Assembly: GCF_037042905.1 (NCBI RefSeq)
Contig: NC_087250.1
Coordinates: 5,520,001 to 5,584,000, forward strand
Direction: 5' to 3'
Source: Lytechinus pictus
Taxonomy: Eukaryota
Length of the DNA stretch: 64,000 bases
Shown here piece by piece: positions 36,571-61,200 of the stretch. Below the pieces are notes generated by a model, which was not told the DNA's origin, made no database searches, and saw only the letters and a program-made list of their open reading frames with translations. Each line of letters opens with the position of its first letter. The stretch's first letter is position 1. A program made the position numbers and the translations under genes.

Positions 36571-36607
<37 letters not shown>

Positions 36608-41256: not shown

Positions 41257-41288
<32 letters not shown>

Positions 41289-41966: not shown

Positions 41967-41967
41967 C

Positions 41968-41980: not shown

Positions 41981-43413
41981 TAAAGCGATTTTTATTTTAT
42001 TTTCGGCAAAACATTTTCTTTACTTCGCCACAGCCAACGCCGTTGCAGAATCTGCGTTGGCCGTGGCCGAATATAAAAAAGCCGCCGCCATCTTGAAAAT
42101 TTTAGGCTTTTTATTAATTTGAGCTGTTTGACTCTGTTTCGTCCATAATATTAAATAAAACAAAAAGTAACATATTATTTTAGTTTGAGATTTCATTTTT
42201 TGGTGGGAAAAGTTTGATTTTTAGTTCCGTAAATATACTCTATTTTTTTACCGATCGGCACTGCCGTGCTGGCCTTGAAGGAATTCAGTGGCTAGCTCGA
42301 CAGGAGCTAATCGGATTTTTTTGGACAAAACATTATACGTTGTACTATTTAGGGTAAATATCCACTCATTTTGTTGACCATATATTTAAATCTTCCCTCG
42401 TTAGGATATATTTTTGTGGCCACGGAGTGTGATTGACTTTGATGAAATTTTGATTGCGTTTGACTGTGTTTACTGATGTGGTGTGAATGGATTGCTGAAT
42501 ATTATTGATGTTGTGAGTTGATTATTTTATTACAAGCCTGAATTTGCTTTTCTCCTTTGACCGCCGCGCTGCTGCTGCTGCTGCTGTTGTTAGTATTTTT
42601 TTTGTAATTATATTTCTGGGTGTTTTTTGGAGAAAACACCAGACATTTGCTGCTGCTGCTGCTGCTGCTGTTAATTGTTAGGAATTTATTATTTTTGGTC
42701 ACGCGTCTCAGGAGATAATGAAATTCAGTCTTGTATTAATTATTGTGTTGTTGCTGCTGCTGCTGTATTGAATATTTTGCTGCTGTTGCTCTGCTGTTGT
42801 ATTGTTGCTGCTGCTGCTGTATTGAATATTTTGTTGTTTATTGCTGCTGCCGTTGTGTAATTGAATTGTTGCTGCTGCTGTTGTATAATATATTTTGTTG
42901 CTGGTGCTGCCGTTGATGTGAGCTGTGCTGCTGACATTTGTATTAAATTCATATTCAATCAATTAATTATAAATTGTATAATTAAATAAATTTTGTATAT
43001 ATTTAGATAAATTGTACTTGTAAATATTAACTTTTGTTCAAAAAACAGAAAAAAAATAAATAAATAATAATAATTTATTTATTTGAAATTATTTCTATAT
43101 ATTTTTCATATCTTTCTTTGAACAAGTGAGCGTTCGATTGTTTGCATTTTTTCTTTTCTTTCCTAAGAATTAAATCATACAGGAATTTTATTTTTTAGGA
43201 AAGTAGCCTCTGGATTTTAATTTGATTACATTCTCAGGATATTGTGAGGTTAGTTCTGTTAATTCTCTTTCATTTTTTTTTCAAAAAGTTAATTTTGTCC
43301 CAGATTTATTTTGATTTTATCCGCAAGACAAAGTAGTCTGCAGGATAATTTTTGGCTAATTACAGTTCAATTTTGGAATTTAATTTTTGTTACTGATTAA
43401 TTTCTACATCAAG

Positions 43414-44877: not shown

Positions 44878-44905
44878 AGACATCATCAAGTGGGCAGATA
44901 GGCTT

Positions 44906-45754
44906 ATGACCCTTGCAGGTCAGGCCTTTGTAGGCCTTCCCGACAAGTTCGTTCAAGAACTTGTAGTGGCAAGGTTCTGCCAAGGTGCCCAAGACAAAGA
45001 TGCAGGGCATCATGTCCTGACTTCTCGGCCTGGGACCTTAGATGAAGCCATGACTAAGTACAAATGGTTTCAGTTTACCCAGAAGACCATGCACACGCAT
45101 GGCCCTAGGTCGAGAAAAGAGGTAAGGCAGCTCTCGATGGGAGATGGCGATAGTGACCTAAGGGTGCAAAAGTTGTCTCCCCCAGAGGCTGCCAAGAAGG
45201 GAAATTCTAGCCTTGAGGCTAGACTAAGTGCTCTGGAAGCCCAAAATGCAGTATGGGCATCCAAGATGGATTCGATGGTCGCTGCGATCACGGATCTATC
45301 TAGAAGCACAAAGGAACTCTTGTCGGTGTCGGGAGGCCGGTCGAGGTACCCCTCAGGCCGTGCCCCTGTTACACCTGACAGGCAGAAATACACCTCCGGC
45401 CGAGTTCCTGGTACCCCGGACAGACCAAAGTATACCTATGGTCGGGCTCCAGGTACGCCAGACAGGCCGAGGTTTAACTCAAATTTGACACCAGATCGGT
45501 CAGTAGGAGGCCGAAGGCCATTTTTTGGCCCTTCGCCAACTACAACTGATCGTCAGCGAAACTTCACAGGCTGTTTCAACTGTGGGGAAGAAGGCCATTT
45601 CAGCAGGGCCTGCCCCATGGGAAGATCGCCTGTGAACAGTAGACAAGTAAGGGCTGTAACCTTCGAGGAGGAGGGAAATGGACAGGGATCGGCGGAGATG
45701 GGGAGTCCCCGATCCGATCAGAGATCCCCTCCCCCGCCATCCCCATTCCATTAA
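44906..45754 (+). CDS. gag: Gag C-terminal part with CCHC zinc knuckle, copy 1
   Basis: WADRLMTLAGQAF...RFCQG capsid-like segment; CFNCGEEGHFSRAC. Confidence 0.85.
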   Translation: MTLAGQAFVGLPDKFVQELVVARFCQGAQDKDAGHHVLTSRPGTLDEAMTKYKWFQFTQKTMHTHGPRSRKEVRQLSMGDGDSDLRVQKLSPPEAAKKGNSSLEARLSALEAQNAVWASKMDSMVAAITDLSRSTKELLSVSGGRSRYPSGRAPVTPDRQKYTSGRVPGTPDRPKYTYGRAPGTPDRPRFNSNLTPDRSVGGRRPFFGPSPTTTDRQRNFTGCFNCGEEGHFSRACPMGRSPVNSRQVRAVTFEEEGNGQGSAEMGSPRSDQRSPPPPSPFH

Positions 45755-45765
45755 AGGGCAGCCTA

Positions 45766-48700
45766 ATGCCACAAGACCAAGGGAACCAACGGGCACCGGA
45801 CTCACAAGCAAGCCCAGGGAGCCCGAAATTCTCTAAGGTAACTGAGCACCCTTGGAGGAACCCGCCATGGCCACCAGACATTTCTGGTGATGTTAAAGAT
45901 CAAGAGGTTGAAGAAGTCATTTGTAGAATTGTGTCTACTTCAACATTGAGTGTTGAGTTGGCAGTTAGCAAGGAGCCCATTACATCCGTTTTGGACACTG
46001 CGGCAGCTGTCACCATTATATCTGATAGGCTTTTCCATCGCCTCCAGCCTCGGCCGCCGATCCTTAAGCGTGTAGTTCTTAAGGGGGCTGGCCGAGACAT
46101 GACAATGGACGGCATTGTGATAGGACCTATCACGCTCCAGCTGGGTAACCAAATACTCAACGAGGAGATTCACGTAGCTCCGATAGCAGATGAGATGTTG
46201 TTTGGCGTTGATCTATTAAGAAAACACAATGCCAATATTAGCATTCCAAATGCTATCCTAACTTTGAACGGTGAAAACCTACCAATAATCCAACGCGAAG
46301 ATTCGGGGAGTACGGCAGAGGTGTGTGTAGATAAGGGCGTCTGTGTTCCTCCGTGTTCGGTTCGAAGGGTTAAGTGTTCGGTGGCACTTAATTCTAGCCC
46401 ATTCTTGGTGGAACCTTTGCCTTTCCTACCCATACCTGTTCTTATACCCCGGAGCCTTCATGAAAGTAAGAAAGATACAGAAGTTTTCCTGATAAATTCC
46501 TCTGATATGACCTACAAGTTACGAAGGGGTGATATGATTGGGAAAGCTTATCAAGTCTCGGTGATAGAACCTGAAATAGAACCCTCAGAGGATGTCACAG
46601 TTAGGAGTATTAACACTGTAAAAGCTTCGGACTCAGACATACCTCCTCACCTTCTGGACCTTTGGGGCCGCTCTAATGAGGGGCTGGCCCCAGAGGAACA
46701 GGAGGAGTTGAGAGGGCTGCTACTAAAATATCAATCAGTGTTCGCAAAAGATGAGTTTGACCTTGGTGGTTTCAACGAGGTAACTCATAGCATAGACACG
46801 GGTGATGCGAGGCCCATAAAACAAAAGATGAGGCGGACCCCCCTGAATTTCATTCAGGAGGAGCAGGCACATCTCGACAAGATGCTCGCCGCTGGAGTTA
46901 TCCAGCCGTCTATGTCTGAATGGGCATCGCCCCCTGTGTTAGTGAGGAAAAAAGATGGAGGAGTCCGATGGTGCATTGATTACCGCAAGTTAAACAATGT
47001 CACCAAAAAGGACGTCTACCCCTTACCATGTATTGAAGAATGCCTTGATATTTTAGCAGGCAACAAGTGGTTTTCCAAACTTGATGCCAACGCAGCTTAT
47101 TGGCAAATCAAGGTAAATGAAGCAGATAGGGACAAAACAGCCTTCGTTACAAAACATGGGCTGTATGAGTTCGTCCGCATGGGATTTGGCCTGTGCAATG
47201 CACCGGCCACCTTCCAACGTGTGATGAACTTAGTCCTGAGAGGTCTCACATGGGACGTGGCTCTTGCATTCTTGGATGATATCCTGGTATTGGGTAAATT
47301 ATTTCCAGACCACATCAAGAATCTAGGGGCAGTCCTGAGGCGTTTCAAGGACTACAGACTCAAATTGAAACCCAAGAAGTGTGCCTTGTTTCAACGAAAG
47401 GTGGAGTTCTTGGGTAGGGAAGTGGATGCTACAGGCTTGCATCTACCAGAGGAAAACATCCAAAGGGTAGTGGATTGGCCTACTCCTGCTTCCACTAAAG
47501 AAGTAGAGCAGTTCTTAGGGTTGGCCAACTATCACAGGGTGTTTATGAAAGATTATGCACGGGTGGCTGGGCCATTGTATGAGCTTACAGGCAATCATGC
47601 TTTCAGTTGGACAGAGTTTCATCAGGAGGCATTCGAACAAATCAAAGCTATATTAACCTCAGCCCCTGTGCTCACACTTCCAAACGCACATGACCCGTTC
47701 ATCCTAGATACGGATGCGTCTAGCACAGCGATTGGAGCAGAGCTGCTACAGGTTCAAAATGGTGAGGAGAAGGTCATAGCTTATGGCAGCTTGTCTCTTT
47801 CTCCTCAACAAAGGAACTATTGTGTCACTCGCCGCGAGCTCTTAGCGTTGGTGTTATTTTGCAGACAGTATAGGCATTACCTTTTAGGTAGGCCATTTAC
47901 TGTCAGAACGGATCATGGCAGCCTAACATGGCTGCTCAACTTCAAAACGCCGACAGGACAGCTGTCTCGCTGGCTGGAGGAGTTAGGGCAGTACAATATG
48001 AAAATCGAACACCGGCCCGGTAGGCGCCACTCTAATGCAGATTCTCTTTCGCGCATTCCTGATACAGAATCAGTGTGTGAAGGGTATGAGCATGGTGTGC
48101 GACTACAGGATTTGCCGTGTGGTGGGTGTTCATATTGTACCAAGAGACACAAAGAATGGGCACACTTTGTCGACTGTGTCGATGATGTTGTGCCATTAAG
48201 TCAAAGCCAAAGGGTCTCGAATGTGGCTGTTGAAGAAACTTTCCCTGTCACGCACATGGAAATATTGTTCAACAAGGCCAACTCATTTGAGATCCGAAGT
48301 ATCTCAGTTGACCCAACTGAGGTGGCAGAGGAACCGCCTTCTGACAATTTAGTCAAGCAAGAGCAAGAAAAAGACCAGGTTCTCGTGCCCCTCCGTGAGT
48401 GGTTAACCAACAAGAAAGAACTGGATGAAGGGACTCTGTTTCTCCTCCCGCCAGAGGGAAAGTTCTTGTGGACGAACAGAGAACTCTTCTACTTCAAAGA
48501 AGGAGTTATCTGGATGAAGAAGGATGTAGGTGATGTTATAGTGATTCCAGAATCACTACGGCATGACATCATTCGGCTGAATCATGACCCTCCTTCAGCA
48601 GGGCATGCTGGAATCAATCGCACTCGGGCTAAGCTAAAGTCCAAGTATTATTGGTATCGCATGTCAGAAGATATTCGCATTTACATAGCCAGGTGTACAA

Positions 48701-49074
48701 CTTGCAATCAGAACAAGAAAGCGACCCGCCCTGGGAGGCATCCTATGAAAAGTTTTCATGCGAGCGCCCCCATGGAACGTGTCCATCTTGACTTCATGGG
48801 CCCACTACCAAAGACAACAAATGGTAATGAAAACATCCTGGTTATGGTAGATCAATTTACCAAATGGGTGGAATGCGTACCTTTGCCTTCCCAAACCGCA
48901 GAGATGACAGCTCATGCAGCAGTGAGCAGTTTTTTCTGCCGGTTTGGATATCCATTTCAAATCTTCACGGATCAGGGCAGAAATTTTGAGAGTACACTTT
49001 TCAAGGACATGTGCCGTGTCCTTGATATTCACAAGTCAAAAACGACCGCATTCCGCCCCCAAGCAAAAAGTTGA
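45766..49074 (+). CDS. pol: Pol (protease-RT-RNase H-integrase), copy 1; frameshift near 49065, truncated at 49295
   Basis: VLDTAAAVTII; WCIDYRKLN; FLDDIL; TDASSTAIGA/TRRELLA/RTDHGSL; HDPPSAGH..CTTC; HLDFMGP; TDQGRNF; Gypsy domain order. Confidence 0.95.
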   Translation: MPQDQGNQRAPDSQASPGSPKFSKVTEHPWRNPPWPPDISGDVKDQEVEEVICRIVSTSTLSVELAVSKEPITSVLDTAAAVTIISDRLFHRLQPRPPILKRVVLKGAGRDMTMDGIVIGPITLQLGNQILNEEIHVAPIADEMLFGVDLLRKHNANISIPNAILTLNGENLPIIQREDSGSTAEVCVDKGVCVPPCSVRRVKCSVALNSSPFLVEPLPFLPIPVLIPRSLHESKKDTEVFLINSSDMTYKLRRGDMIGKAYQVSVIEPEIEPSEDVTVRSINTVKASDSDIPPHLLDLWGRSNEGLAPEEQEELRGLLLKYQSVFAKDEFDLGGFNEVTHSIDTGDARPIKQKMRRTPLNFIQEEQAHLDKMLAAGVIQPSMSEWASPPVLVRKKDGGVRWCIDYRKLNNVTKKDVYPLPCIEECLDILAGNKWFSKLDANAAYWQIKVNEADRDKTAFVTKHGLYEFVRMGFGLCNAPATFQRVMNLVLRGLTWDVALAFLDDILVLGKLFPDHIKNLGAVLRRFKDYRLKLKPKKCALFQRKVEFLGREVDATGLHLPEENIQRVVDWPTPASTKEVEQFLGLANYHRVFMKDYARVAGPLYELTGNHAFSWTEFHQEAFEQIKAILTSAPVLTLPNAHDPFILDTDASSTAIGAELLQVQNGEEKVIAYGSLSLSPQQRNYCVTRRELLALVLFCRQYRHYLLGRPFTVRTDHGSLTWLLNFKTPTGQLSRWLEELGQYNMKIEHRPGRRHSNADSLSRIPDTESVCEGYEHGVRLQDLPCGGCSYCTKRHKEWAHFVDCVDDVVPLSQSQRVSNVAVEETFPVTHMEILFNKANSFEIRSISVDPTEVAEEPPSDNLVKQEQEKDQVLVPLREWLTNKKELDEGTLFLLPPEGKFLWTNRELFYFKEGVIWMKKDVGDVIVIPESLRHDIIRLNHDPPSAGHAGINRTRAKLKSKYYWYRMSEDIRIYIARCTTCNQNKKATRPGRHPMKSFHASAPMERVHLDFMGPLPKTTNGNENILVMVDQFTKWVECVPLPSQTAEMTAHAAVSSFFCRFGYPFQIFTDQGRNFESTLFKDMCRVLDIHKSKTTAFRPQAKS

Positions 49075-49616
49075 GAGGGCGAATAGGACCGTGATGGATG
49101 CAGTGCGATGCTACGTCTCAAAGTCACAAAGGGACTGGGACAGGCATCTCCAGCAGATCGCAGGTGCTATTCGCTCCTCTGTAAATCGTACAACTGGATT
49201 TACCCCTAACAAGCTAATGCTGGGTCGGGAGGTTAATCTACCCTCTGATCTCGTATGCTCTGTTCCTCAACCCGCTCAAGAGCAGACCAAAGAAGGATTT
49301 ATTACCACACTTAGACCAGGGTTAACTTAAACCTTGCTATCGGAATACGAAACTTAAACCTAGGTTTAAATATGGCAGTTTATTACCACACTTAGACTAG
49401 GGTTAAGTTAAACCACGCTATCAGAATACGGGCCAGAGAGTTTTGTATACTTATTTCGTTCTACTGAAACATTACAGATAGTCGCTGATTATTCTAATTC
49501 TATAATAATAATAAAAAGTCACATTGCATGGTGAGATAGAGAAATAATTGGAAAGAATGATGGACGAGGGAAAGAGAGAGAGAGAGATAAAGAAATGGAG
49601 GGTGAGATAGAAAAGG

Positions 49617-49648
<32 letters not shown>

Positions 49649-50065
49649 AGATATGAAAAAAAAAGATTGAGGAAGAGGTCATAATACAGATCATAACAAA
49701 CAGATTGTCTTTTTATCTAGCATTCATGGATTCTCTCACACAACCTCTAAGTCTTCTGGGACGGGTATGGAAACAGTTCTCGGCTGCATGCCGTCACTAA
49801 TGTACTGAGAGACACCCCCTCCTTTGCGATTAGTACGGCATTTTGAGAAATGTAAGAATCCATCCACATTGAAAGAGTTTGCTGTATACGCTGTGAACCA
49901 TGTCTCGGTAATGGCGCACACTTCCAGTTTGTTTATTTGGATAAAAGTTTCAAATTCGTCAAACTTGTTCGATAGAGACCTGATATTAGACATGAAAATA
50001 CGGGGGAAATCTTATTTTTCATGTTTCACCTCTTTCTCATTTGTCACATGTAAGGGTGAGATGGA

Positions 50066-50326
50066 TATAGTGTAAGGGGGTTATAGTTAAGCAGACGACA
50101 TCATGCACCCAAGTGACACAAGTCACATGACACATCGGCGGGAGGAACCACAACACAATACAGTACACACGCCACTAAAACACTCCACTCCATACTCAAC
50201 CCCCGAGAGGTACAGACGTCCTGAGAGCTGTGCATAACAAGAATAAGGTAAGGCTTTCTCCCGGTGTATATTGTGTGTAAGTTATAGTGAGTGTATGATT
50301 ATTTATGTTATCGGCCCCCCTCTTTA
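50066..50326 (+). repeat. 5' LTR of the full-length element
   Basis: Matches 41706-41966; followed by the PBS. Confidence 0.93.
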
Positions 50327-51773
50327 CTGGCGACGAGGATTAAAGCGATTTTTATTTTATTTTCGGCAAAACATTTTCTTTACTTCGCCACAGCCAACGC
50401 CGTTGCAGAATCTGCGTTGGCCGTGGCCGAATATAAAAAAGCCGCCGCCATCTTGAAAATTTTAGGCTTTTTATTAATTTGAGCTGTTTGACTCTGTTTC
50501 GTCCATAATATTAAATAAAACAAAAAGTAACATATTATTTTAGTTTGAGATTTCATTTTTTGGTGGGAAAAGTTTGATTTTTAGTTCCGTAAATATACTC
50601 TATTTTTTTACCGATCGGCACTGCCGTGCTGGCCTTGAAGGAATTCAGTGGCTAGCTCGACAGGAGCTAATCGGATTTTTTTGGACAAAACATTATACGT
50701 TGTACTATTTAGGGTAAATATCCACTCATTTTGTTGACCATATATTTAAATCTTCCCTCGTTAGGATATATTTTTGTGGCCACGGAGTGTGATTGACTTT
50801 GATGAAATTTTGATTGCGTTTGACTGTGTTTACTGATGTGGTGTGAATGGATTGCTGAATATTATTGATGTTGTGAGTTGATTATTTTATTACAAGCCTG
50901 AATTTGCTTTTCTCCTTTGACCGCCGCGCTGCTGCTGCTGCTGCTGTTGTTAGTATTTTTTTTGTAATTATATTTCTGGGTGTTTTTTGGAGAAAACACC
51001 AGACATTTGCTGCTGCTGCTGCTGCTGCTGTTAATTGTTAGGAATTTATTATTTTTGGTCACGCGTCTCAGGAGATAATGAAATTCAGTCTTGTATTAAT
51101 TATTGTGTTGTTGCTGCTGCTGCTGTATTGAATATTTTGCTGCTGTTGCTCTGCTGTTGTATTGTTGCTGCTGCTGCTGTATTGAATATTTTGTTGTTTA
51201 TTGCTGCTGCCGTTGTGTAATTGAATTGTTGCTGCTGCTGTTGTATAATATATTTTGTTGCTGGTGCTGCCGTTGATGTGAGCTGTGCTGCTGACATTTG
51301 TATTAAATTCATATTCAATCAATTAATTATAAATTGTATAATTAAATAAATTTTGTATATATTTAGATAAATTGTACTTGTAAATATTAACTTTTGTTCA
51401 AAAAACAGAAAAAAAATAAATAAATAATAATAATTTATTTATTTGAAATTATTTCTATATATTTTTCATATCTTTCTTTGAACAAGTGAGCGTTCGATTG
51501 TTTGCATTTTTTCTTTTCTTTCCTAAGAATTAAATCATACAGGAATTTTATTTTTTAGGAAAGTAGCCTCTGGATTTTAATTTGATTACATTCTCAGGAT
51601 ATTGTGAGGTTAGTTCTGTTAATTCTCTTTCATTTTTTTTTCAAAAAGTTAATTTTGTCCCAGATTTATTTTGATTTTATCCGCAAGACAAAGTAGTCTG
51701 CAGGATAATTTTTGGCTAATTACAGTTCAATTTTGGAATTTAATTTTTGTTACTGATTAATTTCTACATCAAG

Positions 51774-53237
51774 ATGGCGAGCAACATACCAAGAATCAAA
51801 ATCAACTTGTGTTCGTCTGAGGAATTGATGAGTCTGCCCGGAGTGGGTATGGCCACCGCCAACCGCATTCTACATGCGAGGGAGGCGGCCGACCTTACTC
51901 CGGATACATTCTTGTCGATACCTCATATACCGAAGGCGGAACTGTTAGTTTACGCCTTTGATTATGAGCCAACAACAACGGCTCATAATGTGGACCGCAG
52001 AGAAGTGCGCTCCGAAGGAGACGAGCCTTCTACGAGCGTTCCACTTATTCCGTCTAAGGAGCCCCCCGTAAGCCAGGCGTTTGAGGCTTGGCCACAGCAC
52101 ACCCATGCACATAGCGCACAGGGTGCTGTAGGCCAATCTTCTCAGACACAGGCCGGGGAGGCCCCCTCATTTTTCACAGGGGGGAGGCCAGGTGGCGCTT
52201 TTACTCAGCAGCCTTCGGCCTCTCCAGAAGATAGGGCTAAGTCCCTCTGGGCTAATCAATTTGGGTTTTCAGGATGGAACGATGGTCTGTTCCCACCACA
52301 GGGTCCCCACCAAGTTACCCCACCAGGACCCCAGTTCCAATGTGGTCCTCGTGCCCAGGTAGCTACCCCACCAGGACCCCAGTTCCAATTTGGTCCTCAT
52401 GCCCAAGTAGATTTGCATGGTCAGGCTCCCGGTACTCAGGGTGGCCGACCAGCAATGTTCAATCAAACAACCCAGACACCTCCACATAGCTATCCACAGG
52501 CCGTTCCACACTTTACACAAGCACAGTACGAGGAAATGTATGGCGTGATGTTTAGGATGATGCAGATGATGCCATTCGGAGGAACTGGACAGCCAGCTCC
52601 TCCATACTGCAACCCTGCTGCCGCCTACGGTGGGTATTGCCCACCATGGGCTGGAGGCAGATATCCGCCACACTATCCTAACACTGTGGCCCCGCAAACC
52701 TCTCCCCAAGGACCATGTGACTTGCAATATGGGGGTAGCAACCCTGTGTATCAAGGCGCTGGACCTCAAGGAGATGGACATGGAGGCCCAGTATACAGTG
52801 AACATAGAAACACCACAAGGCCATCAGTAAGCCCTGGATACAGGGGGCTGTCAACAAGAAATCAGCCGCCCCGCGTCACCAGACTTACTTCGGCCTCAAG
52901 ACCTGTGGTACCGGAGTATGACGACAGAAGGCCCCCTTCTAGACCAACCTCTTTGCCGAAGACTATTTCGTTCGACGGCAAAGGAAGTTGGGCGGCCTTC
53001 TATTCAAAGTTCCAACTATACACCGAAAGACACGGCATGTCTGATGCAGACAAGAAATATCAGCTGTGTCTGGCGTTGGAGGCCGAAGCTAGTAAGTTCA
53101 TGGCTCTCATTCAGGAGAGCAACCCAAATATCGCCTTCTCTGACTTGGTTACCAAGTTGGAGAAGCGGTTCGCTCTCCAGGATAAAGCCGGAAGTTACTC
53201 GGATGCAATTTCAATAGGCTTTTCAACGCTCGGATGA
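51774..53237 (+). CDS. gag: Gag N-terminal part (HhH domain), copy 2; frameshifted near 53185
   Basis: Same translation as copy 1. Confidence 0.8.
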   Translation: MASNIPRIKINLCSSEELMSLPGVGMATANRILHAREAADLTPDTFLSIPHIPKAELLVYAFDYEPTTTAHNVDRREVRSEGDEPSTSVPLIPSKEPPVSQAFEAWPQHTHAHSAQGAVGQSSQTQAGEAPSFFTGGRPGGAFTQQPSASPEDRAKSLWANQFGFSGWNDGLFPPQGPHQVTPPGPQFQCGPRAQVATPPGPQFQFGPHAQVDLHGQAPGTQGGRPAMFNQTTQTPPHSYPQAVPHFTQAQYEEMYGVMFRMMQMMPFGGTGQPAPPYCNPAAAYGGYCPPWAGGRYPPHYPNTVAPQTSPQGPCDLQYGGSNPVYQGAGPQGDGHGGPVYSEHRNTTRPSVSPGYRGLSTRNQPPRVTRLTSASRPVVPEYDDRRPPSRPTSLPKTISFDGKGSWAAFYSKFQLYTERHGMSDADKKYQLCLALEAEASKFMALIQESNPNIAFSDLVTKLEKRFALQDKAGSYSDAISIGFSTLG

Positions 53238-53265
53238 AGACATCATCAAGTGGGCAGATAGGCTT

Positions 53266-54114
53266 ATGACCCTTGCAGGTCAGGCCTTTGTAGGCCTTCC
53301 CGACAAGTTCGTTCAAGAACTTGTAGTGGCAAGGTTCTGCCAAGGTGCCCAAGACAAAGATGCAGGGCATCATGTCCTGACTTCTCGGCCTGGGACCTTA
53401 GATGAAGCCATGACTAAGTACAAATGGTTTCAGTTTACCCAGAAGACCATGCACACGCATGGCCCTAGGTCGAGAAAAGAGGTAAGGCAGCTCTCGATGG
53501 GAGATGGCGATAGTGACCTAAGGGTGCAAAAGTTGTCTCCCCCAGAGGCTGCCAAGAAGGGAAATTCTAGCCTTGAGGCTAGACTAAGTGCTCTGGAAGC
53601 CCAAAATGCAGTATGGGCATCCAAGATGGATTCGATGGTCGCTGCGATCACGGATCTATCTAGAAGCACAAAGGAACTCTTGTCGGTGTCGGGAGGCCGG
53701 TCGAGGTACCCCTCAGGCCGTGCCCCTGTTACACCTGACAGGCAGAAATACACCTCCGGCCGAGTTCCTGGTACCCCGGACAGACCAAAGTATACCTATG
53801 GTCGGGCTCCAGGTACGCCAGACAGGCCGAGGTTTAACTCAAATTTGACACCAGATCGGTCAGTAGGAGGCCGAAGGCCATTTTTTGGCCCTTCGCCAAC
53901 TACAACTGATCGTCAGCGAAACTTCACAGGCTGTTTCAACTGTGGGGAAGAAGGCCATTTCAGCAGGGCCTGCCCCATGGGAAGATCGCCTGTGAACAGT
54001 AGACAAGTAAGGGCTGTAACCTTCGAGGAGGAGGGAAATGGACAGGGATCGGCGGAGATGGGGAGTCCCCGATCCGATCAGAGATCCCCTCCCCCGCCAT
54101 CCCCATTCCATTAA
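53266..54114 (+). CDS. gag: Gag C-terminal part with CCHC knuckle, copy 2
   Basis: CFNCGEEGHFSRAC. Confidence 0.85.
   Translation: MTLAGQAFVGLPDKFVQELVVARFCQGAQDKDAGHHVLTSRPGTLDEAMTKYKWFQFTQKTMHTHGPRSRKEVRQLSMGDGDSDLRVQKLSPPEAAKKGNSSLEARLSALEAQNAVWASKMDSMVAAITDLSRSTKELLSVSGGRSRYPSGRAPVTPDRQKYTSGRVPGTPDRPKYTYGRAPGTPDRPRFNSNLTPDRSVGGRRPFFGPSPTTTDRQRNFTGCFNCGEEGHFSRACPMGRSPVNSRQVRAVTFEEEGNGQGSAEMGSPRSDQRSPPPPSPFH
54033..54106 (+). promoter_or_regulatory. Predicted -1 ribosomal frameshift signal (also 45673-45746)
   Basis: G GGA AAT heptamer in the gag frame; pol frame is -1 and open from 54003; 7-bp stem GGATCGG/CCGATCC starts 6 nt downstream. Confidence 0.65.
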
Positions 54115-54125
54115 AGGGCAGCCTA

Positions 54126-57100
54126 ATGCCACAAGACCAAGGGAACCAACGGGCACCGGACTCACAAGCAAGCCCAGGGAGCCCGAAATTCTCTAAGGTA
54201 ACTGAGCACCCTTGGAGGAACCCGCCATGGCCACCAGACATTTCTGGTGATGTTAAAGATCAAGAGGTTGAAGAAGTCATTTGTAGAATTGTGTCTACTT
54301 CAACATTGAGTGTTGAGTTGGCAGTTAGCAAGGAGCCCATTACATCCGTTTTGGACACTGCGGCAGCTGTCACCATTATATCTGATAGGCTTTTCCATCG
54401 CCTCCAGCCTCGGCCGCCGATCCTTAAGCGTGTAGTTCTTAAGGGGGCTGGCCGAGACATGACAATGGACGGCATTGTGATAGGACCTATCACGCTCCAG
54501 CTGGGTAACCAAATACTCAACGAGGAGATTCACGTAGCTCCGATAGCAGATGAGATGTTGTTTGGCGTTGATCTATTAAGAAAACACAATGCCAATATTA
54601 GCATTCCAAATGCTATCCTAACTTTGAACGGTGAAAACCTACCAATAATCCAACGCGAAGATTCGGGGAGTACGGCAGAGGTGTGTGTAGATAAGGGCGT
54701 CTGTGTTCCTCCGTGTTCAGTTCGAAGGGTTAAGTGTTCGGTGGCACTTAATTCTAGCCCATTCTTGGTGGAACCTTTGCCTTTCCTACCCATACCTGTT
54801 CTTATACCCCGGAGCCTTCATGAAAGTAAGAAAGATACAGAAGTTTTCCTGATAAATTCCTCTGATATGACCTACAAGTTACGAAGGGGTGATATGATTG
54901 GGAAAGCTTATCAAGTCTCGGTGATAGAACCTGAAATAGAACCCTCAGAGGATGTCACAGTTAGGAGTATTAACACTGTAAAAGCTTCGGACTCAGACAT
55001 ACCTCCTCACCTTCTGGACCTTTGGGGCCGCTCTAATGAGGGGCTGGCCCCAGAGGAACAGGAGGAGTTGAGAGGGCTGCTACTAAAATATCAATCAGTG
55101 TTCGCAAAAGATGAGTTTGACCTTGGTGGTTTCAACGAGGTAACTCATAGCATAGACACGGGTGATGCGAGGCCCATAAAACAAAAGATGAGGCGGACCC
55201 CCCTGAATTTCATTCAGGAGGAGCAGGCACATCTCGACAAGATGCTCGCCGCTGGAGTTATCCAGCCGTCTATGTCTGAATGGGCATCGCCCCCTGTGTT
55301 AGTGAGGAAAAAAGATGGAGGAGTCCGATGGTGCATTGATTACCGCAAGTTAAACAATGTCACCAAAAAGGACGTCTACCCCTTACCATGTATTGAAGAA
55401 TGCCTTGATATTTTAGCAGGCAACAAGTGGTTTTCCAAACTTGATGCCAACGCAGCTTATTGGCAAATCAAGGTAAATGAAGCAGATAGGGACAAAACAG
55501 CCTTCGTTACAAAACATGGGCTGTATGAGTTCGTCCGCATGGGATTTGGCCTGTGCAATGCACCGGCCACCTTCCAACGTGTGATGAACTTAGTCCTGAG
55601 AGGTCTCACATGGGACGTGGCTCTTGCATTCTTGGATGATATCCTGGTATTGGGTAAATTATTTCCAGACCACATCAAGAATCTAGGGGCAGTCCTGAGG
55701 CGTTTCAAGGACTACAGACTCAAATTGAAACCCAAGAAGTGTGCCTTGTTTCAACGAAAGGTGGAGTTCTTGGGTAGGGAAGTGGATGCTACAGGCTTGC
55801 ATCTACCAGAGGAAAACATCCAAAGGGTAGTGGATTGGCCTACTCCTGCTTCCACTAAAGAAGTAGAGCAGTTCTTAGGGTTGGCCAACTATCACAGGGT
55901 GTTTATGAAAGATTATGCACGGGTGGCTGGGCCATTGTATGAGCTTACAGGCAATCATGCTTTCAGTTGGACAGAGTTTCATCAGGAGGCATTCGAACAA
56001 ATCAAAGCTATATTAACCTCAGCCCCTGTGCTCACACTTCCAAACGCACATGACCCGTTCATCCTAGATACGGATGCGTCTAGCACAGCGATTGGAGCAG
56101 AGCTGCTACAGGTTCAAAATGGTGAGGAGAAGGTCATAGCTTATGGCAGCTTGTCTCTTTCTCCTCAACAAAGGAACTATTGTGTCACTCGCCGCGAGCT
56201 CTTAGCGTTGGTGTTATTTTGCAGACAGTATAGGCATTACCTTTTAGGTAGGCCATTTACTGTCAGAACGGATCATGGCAGCCTAACATGGCTGCTCAAC
56301 TTCAAAACGCCGACAGGACAGCTGTCTCGCTGGCTGGAGGAGTTAGGGCAGTACAATATGAAAATCGAACACCGGCCCGGTAGGCGCCACTCTAATGCAG
56401 ATTCTCTTTCGCGCATTCCTGATACAGAATCAGTGTGTGAAGGGTATGAGCATGGTGTGCGACTACAGGATTTGCCGTGTGGTGGGTGTTCATATTGTAC
56501 CAAGAGACACAAAGAATGGGCACACTTTGTCGACTGTGTCGATGATGTTGTGCCATTAAGTCAAAGCCAAAGGGTCTCGAATGTGGCTGTTGAAGAAACT
56601 TTCCCTGTCACGCACATGGAAATATTGTTCAACAAGGCCAACTCATTTGAGATCCGAAGTATCTCAGTTGACCCAACTGAGGTGGCAGAGGAACCGCCTT
56701 CTGACAATTTAGTCAAGCAAGAGCAAGAAAAAGACCAGGTTCTCGTGCCCCTCCGTGAGTGGTTAACCAACAAGAAAGAACTGGATGAAGGGACTCTGTT
56801 TCTCCTCCCGCCAGAGGGAAAGTTCTTGTGGACGAACAGAGAACTCTTCTACTTCAAAGAAGGAGTTATCTGGATGAAGAAGGATGTAGGTGATGTTATA
56901 GTGATTCCAGAATCACTACGGCATGACATCATTCGGCTGAATCATGACCCTCCTTCAGCAGGGCATGCTGGAATCAATCGCACTCGGGCTAAGCTAAAGT
57001 CCAAGTATTATTGGTATCGCATGTCAGAAGATATTCGCATTTACATAGCCAGGTGTACAACTTGCAATCAGAACAAGAAAGCGACCCGCCCTGGGAGGCA

Positions 57101-57434
57101 TCCTATGAAAAGTTTTCATGCGAGCGCCCCCATGGAACGTGTCCATCTTGACTTCATGGGCCCACTACCAAAGACAACAAATGGTAATGAAAACATCCTG
57201 GTTATGGTAGATCAATTTACCAAATGGGTGGAATGCGTACCTTTGCCTTCCCAAACCGCAGAGATGACAGCTCATGCAGCAGTGAGCAGTTTTTTCTGCC
57301 GGTTTGGATATCCATTTCAAATCTTCACGGATCAGGGCAGAAATTTTGAGAGTACACTTTTCAAGGACATGTGCCGTGTCCTTGATATTCACAAGTCAAA
57401 AACGACCGCATTCCGCCCCCAAGCAAAAAGTTGA
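54126..57434 (+). CDS. pol: Pol (PR-RT-RNase H-integrase N-terminus and core), copy 2
   Basis: Same motifs as copy 1. Confidence 0.95.
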   Translation: MPQDQGNQRAPDSQASPGSPKFSKVTEHPWRNPPWPPDISGDVKDQEVEEVICRIVSTSTLSVELAVSKEPITSVLDTAAAVTIISDRLFHRLQPRPPILKRVVLKGAGRDMTMDGIVIGPITLQLGNQILNEEIHVAPIADEMLFGVDLLRKHNANISIPNAILTLNGENLPIIQREDSGSTAEVCVDKGVCVPPCSVRRVKCSVALNSSPFLVEPLPFLPIPVLIPRSLHESKKDTEVFLINSSDMTYKLRRGDMIGKAYQVSVIEPEIEPSEDVTVRSINTVKASDSDIPPHLLDLWGRSNEGLAPEEQEELRGLLLKYQSVFAKDEFDLGGFNEVTHSIDTGDARPIKQKMRRTPLNFIQEEQAHLDKMLAAGVIQPSMSEWASPPVLVRKKDGGVRWCIDYRKLNNVTKKDVYPLPCIEECLDILAGNKWFSKLDANAAYWQIKVNEADRDKTAFVTKHGLYEFVRMGFGLCNAPATFQRVMNLVLRGLTWDVALAFLDDILVLGKLFPDHIKNLGAVLRRFKDYRLKLKPKKCALFQRKVEFLGREVDATGLHLPEENIQRVVDWPTPASTKEVEQFLGLANYHRVFMKDYARVAGPLYELTGNHAFSWTEFHQEAFEQIKAILTSAPVLTLPNAHDPFILDTDASSTAIGAELLQVQNGEEKVIAYGSLSLSPQQRNYCVTRRELLALVLFCRQYRHYLLGRPFTVRTDHGSLTWLLNFKTPTGQLSRWLEELGQYNMKIEHRPGRRHSNADSLSRIPDTESVCEGYEHGVRLQDLPCGGCSYCTKRHKEWAHFVDCVDDVVPLSQSQRVSNVAVEETFPVTHMEILFNKANSFEIRSISVDPTEVAEEPPSDNLVKQEQEKDQVLVPLREWLTNKKELDEGTLFLLPPEGKFLWTNRELFYFKEGVIWMKKDVGDVIVIPESLRHDIIRLNHDPPSAGHAGINRTRAKLKSKYYWYRMSEDIRIYIARCTTCNQNKKATRPGRHPMKSFHASAPMERVHLDFMGPLPKTTNGNENILVMVDQFTKWVECVPLPSQTAEMTAHAAVSSFFCRFGYPFQIFTDQGRNFESTLFKDMCRVLDIHKSKTTAFRPQAKS

Positions 57435-58155
57435 GAGGGCGAATAGGACCGTGATGGATGCAGTGCGATGCTACGTCTCAAAGTCACAAAGGGACTGGGA
57501 CAGGCATCTCCAGCAGATCGCAGGTGCTATTCGCTCCTCTGTAAATCGTACAACTGGATTTACCCCTAACAAGCTAATGCTGGGTCGGGAGGTTAATCTA
57601 CCCTCTGATCTCGTATTCTCTGTTCCTCAACCCGCTCAAGAGCAGACCAAAGAAGAATATGTGGCCGAGTTGACTTGTGCAATGCGTAATGCTCATATTT
57701 CAGCTAGGGCTGCAATCAAATCTGCTCAGCGCAAGATGAAACGAGACTACGATATCAAACAATACACTCGGGAATTCGAGGTAAATGATCGTGTCTACAT
57801 TAGAGACACGGCCTGTGCCAAGGGGAAATCTCGTAAGTTAAACCCCCCTTGGAAAGGGCCGGCGATCATCGTAGAGAAGAGGTCCCCATATCTTTACAGA
57901 GTGGCCTTCAGAAAAACAATAGCCACTTACAATCACGACCGCTTGAAAAAGTGTACGGATCAGAGTAAGGCGGTTATTGAGACTCCTGGCAAAGACAAAC
58001 TATATTGTTTTTGCCGGAAGGCTGATGATGGCTCTCTGATGATATGTTGCGACGAATGCAATGAATGGTACCACGGAGCGTGCGTTGGTATCACAGAGAC
58101 GGAAGGATTAGAAAACGTGAAATGGTTTTGCCCCCCCTGTACTAAGAGGAGGTAG
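57427..58155 (+). CDS. pol: Integrase C-terminal part after the frameshift: catalytic Glu, GPY/F-like motif, PHD finger
   Basis: KVERANRT; PPWKGPAII; LYCFCRKADDGSLMICCDECNEWYHGACVGI...WFCPPC (C4HC3). Confidence 0.9.
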   Translation, partial: KVERANRTVMDAVRCYVSKSQRDWDRHLQQIAGAIRSSVNRTTGFTPNKLMLGREVNLPSDLVFSVPQPAQEQTKEEYVAELTCAMRNAHISARAAIKSAQRKMKRDYDIKQYTREFEVNDRVYIRDTACAKGKSRKLNPPWKGPAIIVEKRSPYLYRVAFRKTIATYNHDRLKKCTDQSKAVIETPGKDKLYCFCRKADDGSLMICCDECNEWYHGACVGITETEGLENVKWFCPPCTKRR

Positions 58156-58198
58156 AATATTTAGAAACAAATGTGTCGTCTATTATTATGCATGTACT

Positions 58199-59587
58199 AT
58201 GATAAGTCGTCTAATAACCACGTTTATATTTCTTTTCCTTCCCCAAATTCTCTCCCCCTCCCCCCATTTGTGCATCATTCTTCTCTTCCCATACAGAGAG
58301 AAAAAGGAGAGAGAGGAAATCCTGCTACCACCGGGGGTGGAGTTAAACGACATAGAGGTAGACGTTGGTTCGGCCCCAGAGGAGGCCCTTCCTGAGCCCC
58401 CCTCTGAAGCCGAACCAACAAAAATTGAATGTATGCAGCAGGCCTCGGAGACCCGTTCCGAAAATCCGCCTCCTGCACCAGCAGGGGCAGATGCTCGGAA
58501 GAAAGAGTTCTCTGAGGCCGAGCTTGCTAAAAAAAAACGTGAGCTTAATAGGCGTAGAAAAGAACGGGCCAAGCGTGCCAAAAAGACAAAAAAGCTGGCG
58601 CAAGACCCGCTTCCGGGAACAAATGCCGGTCCCTCGACCAGTGGAGGCCTTACGGTTGGGGTTGGTCGTGGCCGTGGACTACTGTCCACTTGGCCTAGAC
58701 CACCCCATCCAGTGGAGTGTTCCTCCATTGGAAGAGGGCGGGGAATCACCCCAAAAATGTTAGAGGAAGCTTTGGAGGAGAGCCCACGGCCACTGCGTGC
58801 ATTCGATGCACACTTTCATCCCGATCGCATAAAAATAAGAAAAGGAAAAACTGAACTTCAGGGACAGCCTCTACACCCGGTCGAGGTAGTCGGAGGGGTA
58901 TGGAACTTCTGTGATCCAGTAAGATACTCCGCCCCCGGCTTCCTCGACAGGGTATTCGAGGAACTCCCTGAAGGCTACGCAGTGGCGGTGGGCATCCACC
59001 CGAAGCAGGCCTATGGCCTGAAGCGTTACTATCTTGAGGCGCTGCGATCGGCTCTCGCCGACCCGAGAGTCAGAGGCCTGTCGGAGTTGGGCCTCGATTG
59101 GTCCACGGATGACTCCGAGTGGGGGGCACAGGAGCAGCTTTTTGAGCAGCTCCTAGGGCTCTCCACCGGAAGAGTCCTGGTACTCCATCTCCGGGGGGCC
59201 AATGGCTCTCGTCCCGGCAATGAGCCGATCCCTCGTGCTGTGCACAAGCTGGCGCGCGACGCGATTCGCCGACGGTGTCCGGCCGCTCAGCGCATCCATT
59301 TGCACTGTTTCATGGGTTCGCCGGACATCGTCGACGAATGGACGTCAGCGTTCCGTTATGCGTACTTTGGTGTCACGGGCAGTGCCTCTTACTACAATGG
59401 AGCGAATGCCAAGCTTAAGAGGCTTGGCATTCGGTCCATTCCAGGAAATCGTCTCCTGATCGAGACAGACGCCCCCTACCTGCCCGTCCGCCCTCGCCAC
59501 GGCTGGCAAACAGAAGCCTTTATCGGCGATGTCGGGCAGGTGGTGGCGTCTATCCGAGGGGTTCCTCTACCAGAGTTACTCGATTAA
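58199..59587 (+). CDS. tatD: ORF3: TatD-family metal-dependent nuclease preceded by an acidic/Pro-rich segment and a basic NLS-like segment; true start uncertain
   Basis: FDAHFHPD, VGIHP, LSELGLD, LVLHLR, IHLHCFMG, FGVTG and LLIETDAPYL occur in TatD order (family-level call). Confidence 0.9.
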   Translation: MISRLITTFIFLFLPQILSPSPHLCIILLFPYREKKEREEILLPPGVELNDIEVDVGSAPEEALPEPPSEAEPTKIECMQQASETRSENPPPAPAGADARKKEFSEAELAKKKRELNRRRKERAKRAKKTKKLAQDPLPGTNAGPSTSGGLTVGVGRGRGLLSTWPRPPHPVECSSIGRGRGITPKMLEEALEESPRPLRAFDAHFHPDRIKIRKGKTELQGQPLHPVEVVGGVWNFCDPVRYSAPGFLDRVFEELPEGYAVAVGIHPKQAYGLKRYYLEALRSALADPRVRGLSELGLDWSTDDSEWGAQEQLFEQLLGLSTGRVLVLHLRGANGSRPGNEPIPRAVHKLARDAIRRRCPAAQRIHLHCFMGSPDIVDEWTSAFRYAYFGVTGSASYYNGANAKLKRLGIRSIPGNRLLIETDAPYLPVRPRHGWQTEAFIGDVGQVVASIRGVPLPELLD

Positions 59588-60331
59588 CGCCAGGGAGCTG
59601 TATTGCCTCAAATAAAGGGGCAATGCTGCTCCCTTGCACCTGTCTCTGCCTTTTACCTTAATTGTAAGGCTATTTTATATACAAAAGTTGTATTTTATAT
59701 GTGTTTATTATGCTTTATATATGTCATACAGAAAATGGACGCCTATGAGTTACAATTCTTATTATATATACTAGTTATGCTTTTTGTTGAAATTGGAAAA
59801 TCAGATAAGCAACAATATTTTATATATATATGTATGTATTCATTGATTTAAAAATTTGTTTATTTTTACTTAGGTACATAGCAGTGAGCTTATTTAATTT
59901 ATGTCAAGGCAGAGACAAGGTAAGAATATTTTTTACAATTGGTAATGATGTACAATGTATATATTTATGTATTTGTGTTATATTTATGTTTATGAACATA
60001 AAGAAAAGAAAATGATCACAAAAAAAGAAAATAAAAAGATCACAGAAGAAGATGAAGAAAAAAAAAGAAGGACAAAAAGATCAAAGATAAAGAAAAGAAA
60101 AAGATTACAAAAGAAGAAAATAAATATTACAGAAAGAAAAAAGAGATCAAAGAATACAAGAAAAAAGAAAGAAAAGATATGCTTGAGAAAAAAAAAAAAA
60201 AATAAATGAAAAATAAATGTATGTTGATGTATATTTTATGTTAGGTTAAGTTGAGTTATACCTTACGTTAAGAATGTTAAATATATTAAGTTATGTTAAG
60301 TTGTATTGGAAATAGGCCCCCCAATTTTTTT

Positions 60332-60345
60332 AGGGTGGGGGGGAG
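60332..60345 (+). promoter_or_regulatory. Polypurine tract
   Basis: AGGGTGGGGGGGAG immediately before the 3' LTR. Confidence 0.85.
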
Positions 60346-60606
60346 TATAGTGTAAGGGGGTTATAGTTAAGCAGACGACATCATGCACCCAAGCGACACA
60401 AGTCACATGACACATCGGCGGGAGGAACCACAACACAATACAGTACACACGCCACTAAAACACTCCACTCCATACTCAACCCCAGAGAGGTACAGACGTC
60501 CTGAGAGCTGTGCATAACAAGAATAAGGTAAGGCTTTCTCCCGGTGTATATTGTGTGTAAGTTATAGTGAGTGTATGATTATTTATGTTATCGGCCCCCC
60601 TCTTTA
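60346..60606 (+). repeat. 3' LTR
   Basis: 261 bp; differs from the 5' LTR at aagTgacaca/aagCgacaca and cccCgagagg/cccAgagagg. Confidence 0.93.
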
Positions 60607-61200
60607 TGGATATCAAGTTCGATCGATCAATAGATGATCTATTTTGGGAGAGATCTCTTAGTCCATCGTTTCGATAATTTACGCGAACGGGTATTTTCGC
60701 AGTTTACGAGAGCCCCCTCTGCATCCTCGAGTTCTTGTAATCCCGTACTGATTAGCAACCAAATTCGTTTGTGACGGCAACGGCACCTTTTGTTTGTTAC
60801 GTAACCTATAAAGGTCATTCCCTGAGTACGTGAGGCGCCGAGGTAAGTCTATTGTCCGTTGCTCGATTAGAGTGGTCATTTTATCATCAATGACCAAACG
60901 ATCTTCTTCCAAGTTCAAAGCCGTTTGAGAAGATAATACTCTTCGGTTTAACACACTGCAAACAGGTATACGTGGTAACAACACAAATGAAAAGCATCCA
61001 GAGTTTCATGAAACTTGAAAATACAACAACAGCCATAGTTCAATATTGCACAAAAGTCAGTTCATAATTATCACAGATTCACATGCAACGAGACTTACTA
61101 GTACTTGAAAGAATCACTTTTCTTAGTCGTCTACGAAAGAAGAGAAATTTCAGCAACACAAATTGCTCTCTGCGCTAGGGAAACAGCGCCCTCAGTTTGT
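60607..61200 (-). mobile_element. 5' portion of the LINE split by the Gypsy element (outer end approximate)
   Basis: RTRGCRGG basic motif; the empty-site join reads ...DRSNLISISPLH...(one stop)...DFPRIFMSNIRS in one frame. Confidence 0.55.

Follow-up and report, generated by a model that had tools for sequence, protein, structure and literature searches.

The 64,000-nucleotide stretch of DNA analysed here as a whole (the window) comes from the sea urchin Lytechinus pictus (assembly GCF_037042905.1, contig NC_087250.1, positions 5,520,001 to 5,584,000 of the forward strand) and contains, at window positions 50066-60606, a Ty3/Gypsy long terminal repeat (LTR) retrotransposon of 10.5 kb. Between pol and the polypurine tract with the 3' LTR, this element carries a third open reading frame (ORF3) of the TatD nuclease family. 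An earlier note on this DNA, made from the sequence alone, had read ORF3 as an accessory gene in the place of env, and this core reading is borne out: ORF3 is an accessory gene and not an env gene. The note had also placed ORF3 within LTRs bounded by a target-site duplication. This agrees with what is found at the locus, where ORF3 is enclosed by two 261-bp LTRs (identical at 259/261 positions), TGGA stands on both outer sides and a purine tract precedes the 3' LTR. The parts of the element are:

50062-50065, + strand: 5' target-site duplication TGGA; the same bases stand at 60607-60610, and the duplication is readable up to TGGATA
50066-50326, + strand: 5' LTR of 261 bp, aligned to 60346-60606 with 2 mismatches
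50328-50339, + strand: 12-mer resembling a primer-binding site, TGGCGACGAGGA, starting with TGG one base past the 5' LTR; no tRNA matched
51774-54114, + strand: gag, split in two frames near 53185-53237 (Pfam HHH_3/HHH, zf-CCHC)
54003-58155, + strand: pol, with protease (PR), reverse transcriptase (RT), RNase H (RNH), integrase (IN; zinc-binding part and core), SH3-like domain and PHD finger (Pfam)
58006-58140, + strand: PHD finger at the C-terminal end of pol (PF00628, E=1.2e-11)
58297-59587, + strand: ORF3 as probably used, with acidic N-terminus, basic helix, two GRGRG boxes and TatD domain (alignment with L009, L011, L013, P0001 and P0002)
59611-59616, + strand: AATAAA, 24 nt past the ORF3 stop, a possible internal polyadenylation signal
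60332-60345, + strand: polypurine tract, directly 5' of the 3' LTR
60346-60606, + strand: 3' LTR (LTR alignment)
60607-60610, + strand: 3' target-site duplication TGGA

The gag gene comprises an N-terminal helix-hairpin-helix (HhH) and a CCHC knuckle, together with a PNMA-like capsid in an uninterrupted relative, and pol shows the Gypsy-type domain order PR-RT-RNase H-IN, which Pfam also detects in nine relatives. In related copies these genes are unbroken, with 790 aa for the gag of L009 and 1385 aa for pol. The helix-hairpin-helix (HHH_3/ComEA-like) DNA-binding motif that opens gag at 51783-51887 is unusual in Gypsy Gag; L009, a copy of the same family, and the metagenome contig L043 have kept it too. 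The PHD finger is also detected in eight other loci and in L043. It closes the integrase where chromoviruses have a chromodomain, an arrangement shared by L009, L014-L016, L018-L021 and L043. Kept across the whole TatD-bearing lineage, the PHD finger may read histone tails for target choice.

ORF3 occupies the stop-to-stop frame 58121-59587 (+) of 488 codons, with the first ATG at 58199. Its assignment to the TatD family, which the earlier note had based on six motifs, is confirmed by the Pfam TatD_DNase profile (PF01026), which matches at E=5.9e-27 with 95.1 bits and thus well above the cut-off of 27. The match spans residues 228-486 and profile positions 1-240 of 253, i.e. the C-terminal 260 residues of ORF3. 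All six motifs are present in the proposed order, those holding the metal ligands included:

58493-58603, + strand: K/R-rich stretch, resembling a nuclear localization signal (NLS) or a helix that would bind nucleic acid (sequence)
58664-58744, + strand: two GRGRG (RGG-like) boxes (sequence)
58802-59578, + strand: TatD_DNase domain (PF01026, 95.1 bits)
58805-58819, + strand: motif DAHFH (sequence)
58991-59002, + strand: motif GIHP (sequence)
59084-59098, + strand: motif ELGLD (sequence)
59183-59194, + strand: motif LHLR (sequence)
59297-59317, + strand: motif HLHCFMG (sequence)
59462-59479, + strand: motif ETDAPY (sequence)

The K/R-rich stretch that had been said to precede the TatD domain is likewise found, at 58493-58603, and forms one long helix in the model of a relative (helix 71-99, block pLDDT, predicted local distance difference test, of 79-91). 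The GRGRG boxes are common to the RGG-form ORF3s, i.e. those of the window family, L014, L015, L016, P0001 and P0003-P0006. The end coordinate given earlier, 59615, does not hold, as it lies 28 nt past the ORF3 stop, at the AATAAA (59611-59616).

Other ORF3s match TatD_DNase with 45-127 bits (13 ORF3s scanned, from 12 other loci). Structure predictions cover relatives of the truncated window ORF3. The AlphaFold model of a same-family ORF3 (440 residues, 29-row alignment) has a mean pLDDT of 78.7 and consists of a disordered N-terminus, one long basic helix and a TIM barrel whose blocks mostly reach pLDDT 85-98. All of the 17 top rows listed by Foldseek for this model are TatD-family proteins. 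The best is 6l25 (E=3.6e-17, template modelling score TM(target) 0.79), followed by 2gzx, TATDN3 and E. coli TatD, and dihydroorotases appear only at E ~1e-6. For a long-form ORF3 model the VIA comparison gives Z=29.7 to 6l25 and 1yix (E. coli YcfH) with a root-mean-square deviation of 2.5 over 244 residues, while other amidohydrolases reach Z<=18. Sequence comparison with solved proteins ranks the YcfH/YabD type first (E=1e-17 to 1e-11), before TatD (5e-6), YjjV (8e-5) and TATDN3 (3e-4). The bacterial comparators are S. aureus TatD/YcfH-type (2gzx, 6l25) and the E. coli proteins YcfH (1yix), TatD (1xwy, 4p5u) and YjjV (1zzm); the human ones are TATDN1 (2xio, 8efg), TATDN3 (2y1h) and TATDN2. 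The best-scoring NCBIfam model is TIGR00010 (YabD/YcfH-type), with 65-102 bits for seven ORF3s against a cut-off of 206, and by this curated threshold the predicted ORF3 proteins fall outside the TIGR00010 subfamily.

No env features are seen in ORF3, as TatD is the sole Pfam match and the models have no membrane or fusion domain; the hydrophobic stretch that follows ATG 58199 is the translated pyrimidine tract upstream of the probable start. Homology to DEDDy exonucleases or GDSL esterases is likewise absent from the Pfam results, TatD being the only family matched. The long-form ORF3s have two further modules ~250 residues ahead of TatD, namely a C2H2-like finger (CPxxGC...K.H....H) and a helical domain, modelled with confidence, in which the motif NSPAxLxHW occurs. 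These motifs are taken from the alignment consensus, and the region corresponds to residues 70-215 of the L018 ORF3 (model ma04cdbfecf5a). Such a CPxxGC...H....H finger, followed by the helical domain (pLDDT 86-98), is present in 80 of the 141 top database matches. The N-terminal finger/helical domain has no Pfam match and ESM Atlas scores of at most 0.83, and the VIA rows all fall on the TatD part, the fold of the domain not having been searched alone.

The linkage of TatD to Gypsy pol, first claimed from this copy, recurs in independent copies, in nine diverged families and in an unrelated metagenome contig. In the 812-Mb assembly that contains the window, tblastn with the TatD domain as query detects 91 matches (E<=0.001), mostly intronless and in many cases within open frames of 440-1267 codons; a Pfam model search of the same assembly gave 59. 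We sampled 18 loci, 13 chosen down the score list and 5 further ones with partial matches. Pol of this Gypsy type lies directly upstream on the same strand in 11 of the 13 and in one of the 5 (12/18 in total). The second sample consists of L054 with a pol of the clade, L053 with only a distant RT (~30% identity), the rearranged L051, and L052 and L055 with no pol. At 8 of the 11 pol-linked loci in the first sample pol ends in a PHD finger detected by Pfam. Across the 13 loci, ORF3 ranges from 448 to 1267 codons and TatD is always C-terminal. Apart from the element in the window, LTR pairs were found in 8/9 elements (94.2-100% identity). The full gag-pol-ORF3 layout is present in nine families whose TatD domains are only 33-50% identical. 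Contig L043 (11.4 kb) has the same layout, with gag (HHH, PNMA-like, CCHC), pol up to IN-PHD and an ORF3 of 1081 codons ending in TatD.

To assess conservation we counted the metal-ligand and catalytic residues typical of the TatD family (HxH, H, E, H, H, D). In 29 aligned ORF3s the first D, H and H are kept in 29/29, followed by H232 (28), E261 (26), D265 (28), H295 (28), H332 and H334 (28 each), E387 (28) and D389 (27). In the pair formed by L016 and its C17 variant, with 103 synonymous and 66 non-synonymous differences, the non-synonymous rate dN is 0.085 and the synonymous rate dS 0.57 (dN/dS 0.15). Copy C14 compared with the decayed C1 copy gives dN/dS 0.10-0.26 over in-frame TatD codons 120-300, other pairs give 0.29-0.65, and pooling over seven pairs gives 0.35. 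These ratios indicate that ORF3 is under purifying selection wherever divergence is large enough to measure it. Neutral evolution of a one-off copy, against which the earlier note had proposed to check its claim, does not fit values of 0.15 in a well-diverged pair and 0.35 in the pool.

That a host TatD gene or a retrocopy of one was transduced into a single element, and has drifted neutrally since, is thus refuted by the comparison of copies, and we leave it next to no probability. It would suit the window copy, which is damaged, has no native start codon, is truncated at the C-terminus and shows too few substitutions within its own family to demonstrate selection. However, nine families whose TatD identity does not exceed 50% share this layout, as does L043; the ligands are conserved, and dN/dS is 0.15-0.35 where measurable. 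Moreover, the sole multi-exon TatD locus seen (C3:58.2 Mb) goes undetected by tblastn with the element TatD. ORF3 may be a captured gene.

ORF3 relatives extend beyond this species. With a profile built from 29 ORF3s, the database search reached 27,330 cluster representatives at E<=0.001, of which 2,007 are left at E<=1e-30; ordinary TatD proteins are surely among the lower-ranked matches. The best 150 matches all reach at least 305 bits; where these exceed ~450 residues, the alignment mostly takes in the N-terminal extension as well. Named sources comprise the sea urchins Lytechinus pictus (99% identical to the ORF3 of the window), L. variegatus, Diadema setosum and Strongylocentrotus purpuratus, and the bivalves Mya arenaria, Ostrea edulis, Saccostrea cucullata, Saccostrea echinata and Dreissena polymorpha. 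One 90% cluster has 13 members from Mya arenaria on many contigs. Among the annotation labels that these relatives bear are 'YabD-like', 'putative deoxyribonuclease TATDN2', 'mucin-17-like' and 'uncharacterized'.

A quick maximum-likelihood tree was built from 55 hand-chosen TatD domains; it is not exhaustive and does not contain TATDN1, TATDN2 or TATDN3, and six rows that lack a DxHxH match entered it with their last 290 residues only. The retrotransposon-type TatDs form one clade (SH-aLRT, Shimodaira-Hasegawa-like approximate likelihood ratio test, 99), apart from six short unnamed environmental TatDs taken as bacterial-type, while P0027, one of the seven chosen outgroup rows, is placed inside the clade. 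Four L. pictus families each pair with an L. variegatus protein, and the short RGG-box form of the window is nested among zinc-finger forms. P0023, P0024, P0110 and P0129 combine CCHC zinc knuckles with TatD, P0023 and P0024 have RG repeats as well, and these two are the sister group of the retrotransposon clade. A 782-aa long-form relative, P0047, comes from a 4-kb contig and bears the title 'MAG: TatD family hydrolase [Sedimenticola sp.]'; here eukaryotic DNA has probably been binned with a bacterial genome.

Loci L017, L055 and L023 (G000:C4:20312032-20322031) hold long open TatD ORF3s with no gag or pol upstream; these copies may have been domesticated or may have lost their 5' part. L023 is nearly the same as the L. 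variegatus protein P0036, annotated 'mucin-17-like', and the two sit on very short branches (0.018 and 0.003) in the tree. Such loci, together with the many TatD ORFs annotated by NCBI as ordinary genes, could mean that some or many of these ORFs are domesticated host genes and that element-borne copies are the minority. We consider this unlikely, since 12/18 loci and the window are pol-linked, several families are multi-copy with near-identical copies, and the 13 cluster members on many contigs of Mya arenaria are typical of a transposon. A different origin for pol-less copies, as DNA retrocopies of a spliced ORF3 mRNA, was considered and rejected because neither L052 nor L051 has a junction of LTR donor and acceptor; L052 is a truncated, rearranged copy of F20 and L051 a rearranged copy of F18.

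We then considered where ORF3 starts and how it would be expressed. Two candidate splice sites are relevant:

50245-50253, + strand: candidate splice donor AAG/GTAAGG in the LTR, exon end 50247; best donor-like site of the LTR, score 11.3 by a heuristic matrix
58230-58296, + strand: pyrimidine-rich tract ending in AG (58295-58296), candidate splice acceptor (sequence)

The donor site is also present in copies C14 and C8, and strong LTR donors occur in L016, L018 and L021. ATG 58199, the first coordinate given by the earlier note, falls within the pyrimidine-rich stretch that leads up to AG 58295-58296. C14, C8 and C1 have a Met codon 8 nt past this AG. The NCBI models P0001 and P0003 start at that Met, and the model of an L. 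variegatus relative starts at the corresponding position. Thus the native ORF3 probably starts just 3' of acceptor 58296 and not at ATG 58199. We lean, with some reservation, towards ORF3 being a separate cistron expressed env-like from a spliced subgenomic mRNA.

Reads and contigs were aligned to the stretch of the element without its LTRs, where a joint of donor and acceptor could not show. Run X1, which consists of contigs only guessed to be RNA, covers gag-pol at depth 6-57 and 58347-59682 at 100-127, then 11. The depth rises from 58306, where one contig begins, and falls from ~102 to 11 after bin 59349-59682, near the AATAAA. In one X1 contig, 27 LTR-type nucleotides directly abut 58295. 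The 27-mer has 13 exact genomic occurrences, mostly in pairs ~6 kb apart, in LTRs of a related subfamily, and is followed there by AG/GTAAGG. This joint, a single short piece, suggests the product expected from splicing of the LTR donor to the ORF3 acceptor. Loose ends of reads at 58269 and 58304 in the runs recorded as RNA belong to another transcript that shares only ~36 nt.

The related LTR subfamily comprises at least 7 copies of ~6-kb elements, namely L032 (G000:C8:11648800-11656200), L033+L034 (C21, 9.7 kb) and five further motif pairs. In the two members examined (L032 and L033+L034) the LTRs, 5' untranslated region, gag and the start of the protease are kept, and RT-IN and ORF3 are missing. 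These ORF3-less ~6-kb elements are probably non-autonomous deletion derivatives.

The same region bears on a different proposal, namely that ORF3 is a C-terminal extension of Pol, reached by read-through, a frameshift or a short intron (GT 58152 to AG 58296). The interval 58152-58296 does begin with GT, contains a pyrimidine tract, ends in AG and preserves the frame when joined, and in L015 pol and ORF3 share a frame with a single stop between them. Nevertheless, pol and ORF3 have no constant frame relative to each other: it changes from family to family and even between the near-identical copies C14 and C8, which makes read-through or frameshifting unlikely. In addition, relatives have a Met after the acceptor at which two NCBI models begin, and Pfam finds RT or IN domains in 0/29 database relatives of at least 800 aa. 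A search for longer homologues gave no fusion, although its one match (921 aa, TatD only) is weak evidence. Overall we consider a Pol extension quite improbable; the intron joining pol to ORF3 (58152-58296) is unsupported by other copies or families.

Several observations weigh against ORF3 as a standard, spliced and selected gene of this lineage. With respect to linkage, 4/18 loci (L017, L023, L052, L055) have no pol within 4.4-6 kb upstream, L017 and L023 having neither gag nor pol within 4.7-6 kb, L053 has only a distant RT and L051 is rearranged. With respect to selection, the L017/L055 pair has dN/dS 0.65, and within the window family ORF3 differs by only 4-6 substitutions, so that selection is not measurable there. 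As to splicing, a pyrimidine tract and AG within 10 nt of the chosen ORF3 ATG are found in only 4/8 families, that of the window included, and X1 is RNA only by guess. The LTR subfamily that contains the 27-mer has ~7 members here, all 6-kb elements but for one of 9.7 kb, and the two examined are gag-only, without ORF3. The three runs on record as RNA yielded 25, 8 and 35 reads with no joints, and do not bear on expression. Finally, with TIGR00010 far below its cut-off (82 against 206 bits), the substrate is not readable from orthology. With these points counted, we put at roughly 0.7 the probability that the element in the window is a decayed member of a Ty3/Gypsy lineage whose standard set consists of gag (HhH), pol (PR-RT-RNH-IN-PHD) and an ORF3 with a TatD nuclease domain.

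The window copy itself is dead, as gag, pol and ORF3 are each damaged. The break in gag corresponds to a one-base length difference at 53185 relative to an X1 contig, and the frame of pol is broken near 57427 inside the integrase core by a five-base length difference. ORF3 ends 13 residues short of its relatives owing to a length difference of 11 nt near 59580, and at the position of their start Met (58304-58306) the window has no start codon. In copies C14 and C8 of the same family, with ~97% overall identity, the frames are unbroken and count 790/786, 1385 and 476/501 codons. Divergence from C14 and C8 is mosaic: the LTRs are only 84-88% identical and dS is 0.08 in gag, 0.02 in the first 3.4 kb of pol, 0.14 in its last part and 0.006 in ORF3. 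Judged from these values, the pattern suggests recombination between subfamilies. Part of the element is present twice:

40934-49294, + strand: near-identical duplicate of 49295-57655, with flank, 5' LTR, gag and pol to mid-integrase (self-BLAST)

The duplicate is a direct tandem copy with 99.976% identity over 8362 bp (self-BLAST) and includes no ORF3. The window thus holds one and a half copies of the element, the duplicate running from the 5' flank to mid-integrase, and the 8.36-kb duplicate is either a real tandem or segmental duplication or an assembly artefact. Elsewhere in the window, a short ORF adjoining the 5' LTR (49736-50011, -) resembles, judged from its translation, the N-terminus of a LINE-type endonuclease. 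At 10677-14521 and 33259-40895 there are extensive arrays of inverted and tandem repeats (72-94% identity), and window 1-41000 has no ORFs of at least 180 codons.

E. coli TatD is a 3'-5' exonuclease, and TatD and TATDN1 have apurinic/apyrimidinic endonuclease activity. From the family match and the ligands we infer that ORF3 is a metal-dependent nuclease. In the mechanism that we propose, the ORF3 mRNA would be spliced from the 5' LTR donor (50247/50248) to the acceptor (58296/58297), 8 nt before the ORF3 start. The N-terminal modules would bring the protein to nucleic acid, by the basic helix and RGG boxes in the window family and by a C2H2-like zinc finger and helical domain in most other families. 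ORF3 might then enter the nucleus or the replication complex and cut or trim nucleic acid made by the element. The likeliest substrates would be the RNA strand or the 3' ends of RNA:DNA and cDNA intermediates, and ORF3 would act as a helper to RNase H and integrase and not as an envelope. According to a review, TATDN2 degrades the RNA strand of R-loops (PMC12754012).

One could also regard the TatD domain as an inactive scaffold, with ORF3 only binding nucleic acid or chromatin. The basic helix, RGG boxes and zinc finger do resemble binding modules, and the scores lie below the NCBIfam subfamily cut-off. Each ligand column is nevertheless kept in 26-29/29 sequences at 30-45% overall identity, which would not be expected for a dead enzyme, and we hold this alternative to be very unlikely.

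A nuclease might instead serve counter-defence, by clearing surplus cytosolic cDNA or RNA:DNA hybrids from host sensors or by degrading host small-RNA precursors. The host nuclease TREX1 offers an analogy for such a counter-sensing role. Expression separate from Gag-Pol would be in line with it, provided that the spliced mRNA exists. The acquisition of DEDDy 3'-5' exonucleases, which have another fold, as rotifer ORF3 (PMC5408684) suggests a recurrent need. Sequence does not separate counter-defence from a role in replication, and the NLS-like helix and the chromatin-reading PHD finger point to the nucleus more than to the cytosol. We regard counter-defence as doubtful.

Returning to the preferred reading, a standard accessory nuclease ORF, we extend it only tentatively, and would not count on the extension. 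There would be an old, large metazoan Gypsy lineage, reaching at least sea urchins and bivalves, with TatD in its core set, its own spliced mRNA and targeting by RGG boxes or zinc fingers. Its nuclease would supply RNA-strand degradation or 3'-end trimming, as TATDN2 does on R-loops, or would hide intermediates from host sensors. This would be convergent with rotifer DEDDy ORF3, and some copies would now be host genes.

Few animal LTR retrotransposons are known to carry an accessory enzyme, and every such case points to a stage of the retroelement life cycle that profits from additional activity. The TatD nuclease, retained in numerous Gypsy families of two phyla, would represent a new enzyme class among retrotransposon accessories. 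On the earlier note's question of prior reports, full-text literature searches, with Repbase, Dfam and subscription journals outside their scope, found no paper on a transposon-borne eukaryotic TatD; a TatD ORF3 in Gypsy elements is apparently undescribed. Such a retroelement TatD offers a natural handle on TatD action at RNA:DNA hybrids and cDNA ends, which is still open for TATDN1, TATDN2 and TATDN3. It also explains dozens of 'TATDN2', 'YabD-like' and 'mucin-like' genes in invertebrate annotations, which are probably transposon ORFs to be masked or re-labelled. In PMC6962438, 'TATDN2' stands among transposon-like genes in the giant-squid Hox cluster, and this may be another case of a retrotransposon TatD.

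LTR retrotransposons with an enzymatic ORF3 are already known, and the closest case is that of the DEDDy/GDSL ORF3s of bdelloid rotifers. These are a DEDDy-type 3'-5' exonuclease in Juno and Vesta and a GDSL esterase in Vesta, as described by Rodriguez, Kenefick and Arkhipova 2017 (PMC5408684). Like Juno and Vesta, the present elements have a third sense ORF between pol and the 3' LTR. Its product is a predicted hydrolase or nuclease whose catalytic residues are intact, without transmembrane or env features. According to PMC5408684, such ORF3s are typically expressed from spliced messages; the role would be auxiliary in both cases. In contrast to them, the present ORF3 is a TIM-barrel TatD and not a DnaQ-like DEDDy or SGNH enzyme, and its hosts are echinoderms and bivalves and not rotifers. 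Furthermore, the present TatD ORF3 is spread over many diverged Gypsy families with measurable purifying selection, whereas for rotifers no significant departure from neutrality within genomes was reported (PMC5408684).

With cellular and bacterial TatD proteins ORF3 shares the Pfam family, the fold and the ligand set, and some relatives are named 'TATDN2' or 'YabD-like' by NCBI. Unlike them, it lies inside a retrotransposon, is intronless, has its own N-terminal modules and forms its own clade in the tree lacking TATDN1-3. The position as third ORF is shared with env-carrying Ty3/Gypsy elements (errantiviruses) and retroviral env, and so, probably, is expression through a 5' donor spliced to an acceptor shortly before the ORF. 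A 2026 survey records no env-carrying Gypsy elements in Echinodermata, and its main text has no mention of nucleases, hydrolases or PHD (PMC13524379). Where errantiviruses encode a membrane fusion glycoprotein, ORF3 is predicted to be a soluble nuclease.

Other accessory domains of LTR retrotransposons include dUTPase and the extra archaeal-type RNase H (aRNH) of plant Tat elements. ORF3 resembles dUTPase, aRNH, the AlkB demethylase ORF of orchid Gypsy elements and the chromodomain, PHD and MBD readers in being a host-like domain fixed in a retroelement lineage; a PHD in retrotransposons is mentioned in PMC6673714. Unlike ORF3, however, none of these accessory domains is a TatD nuclease.

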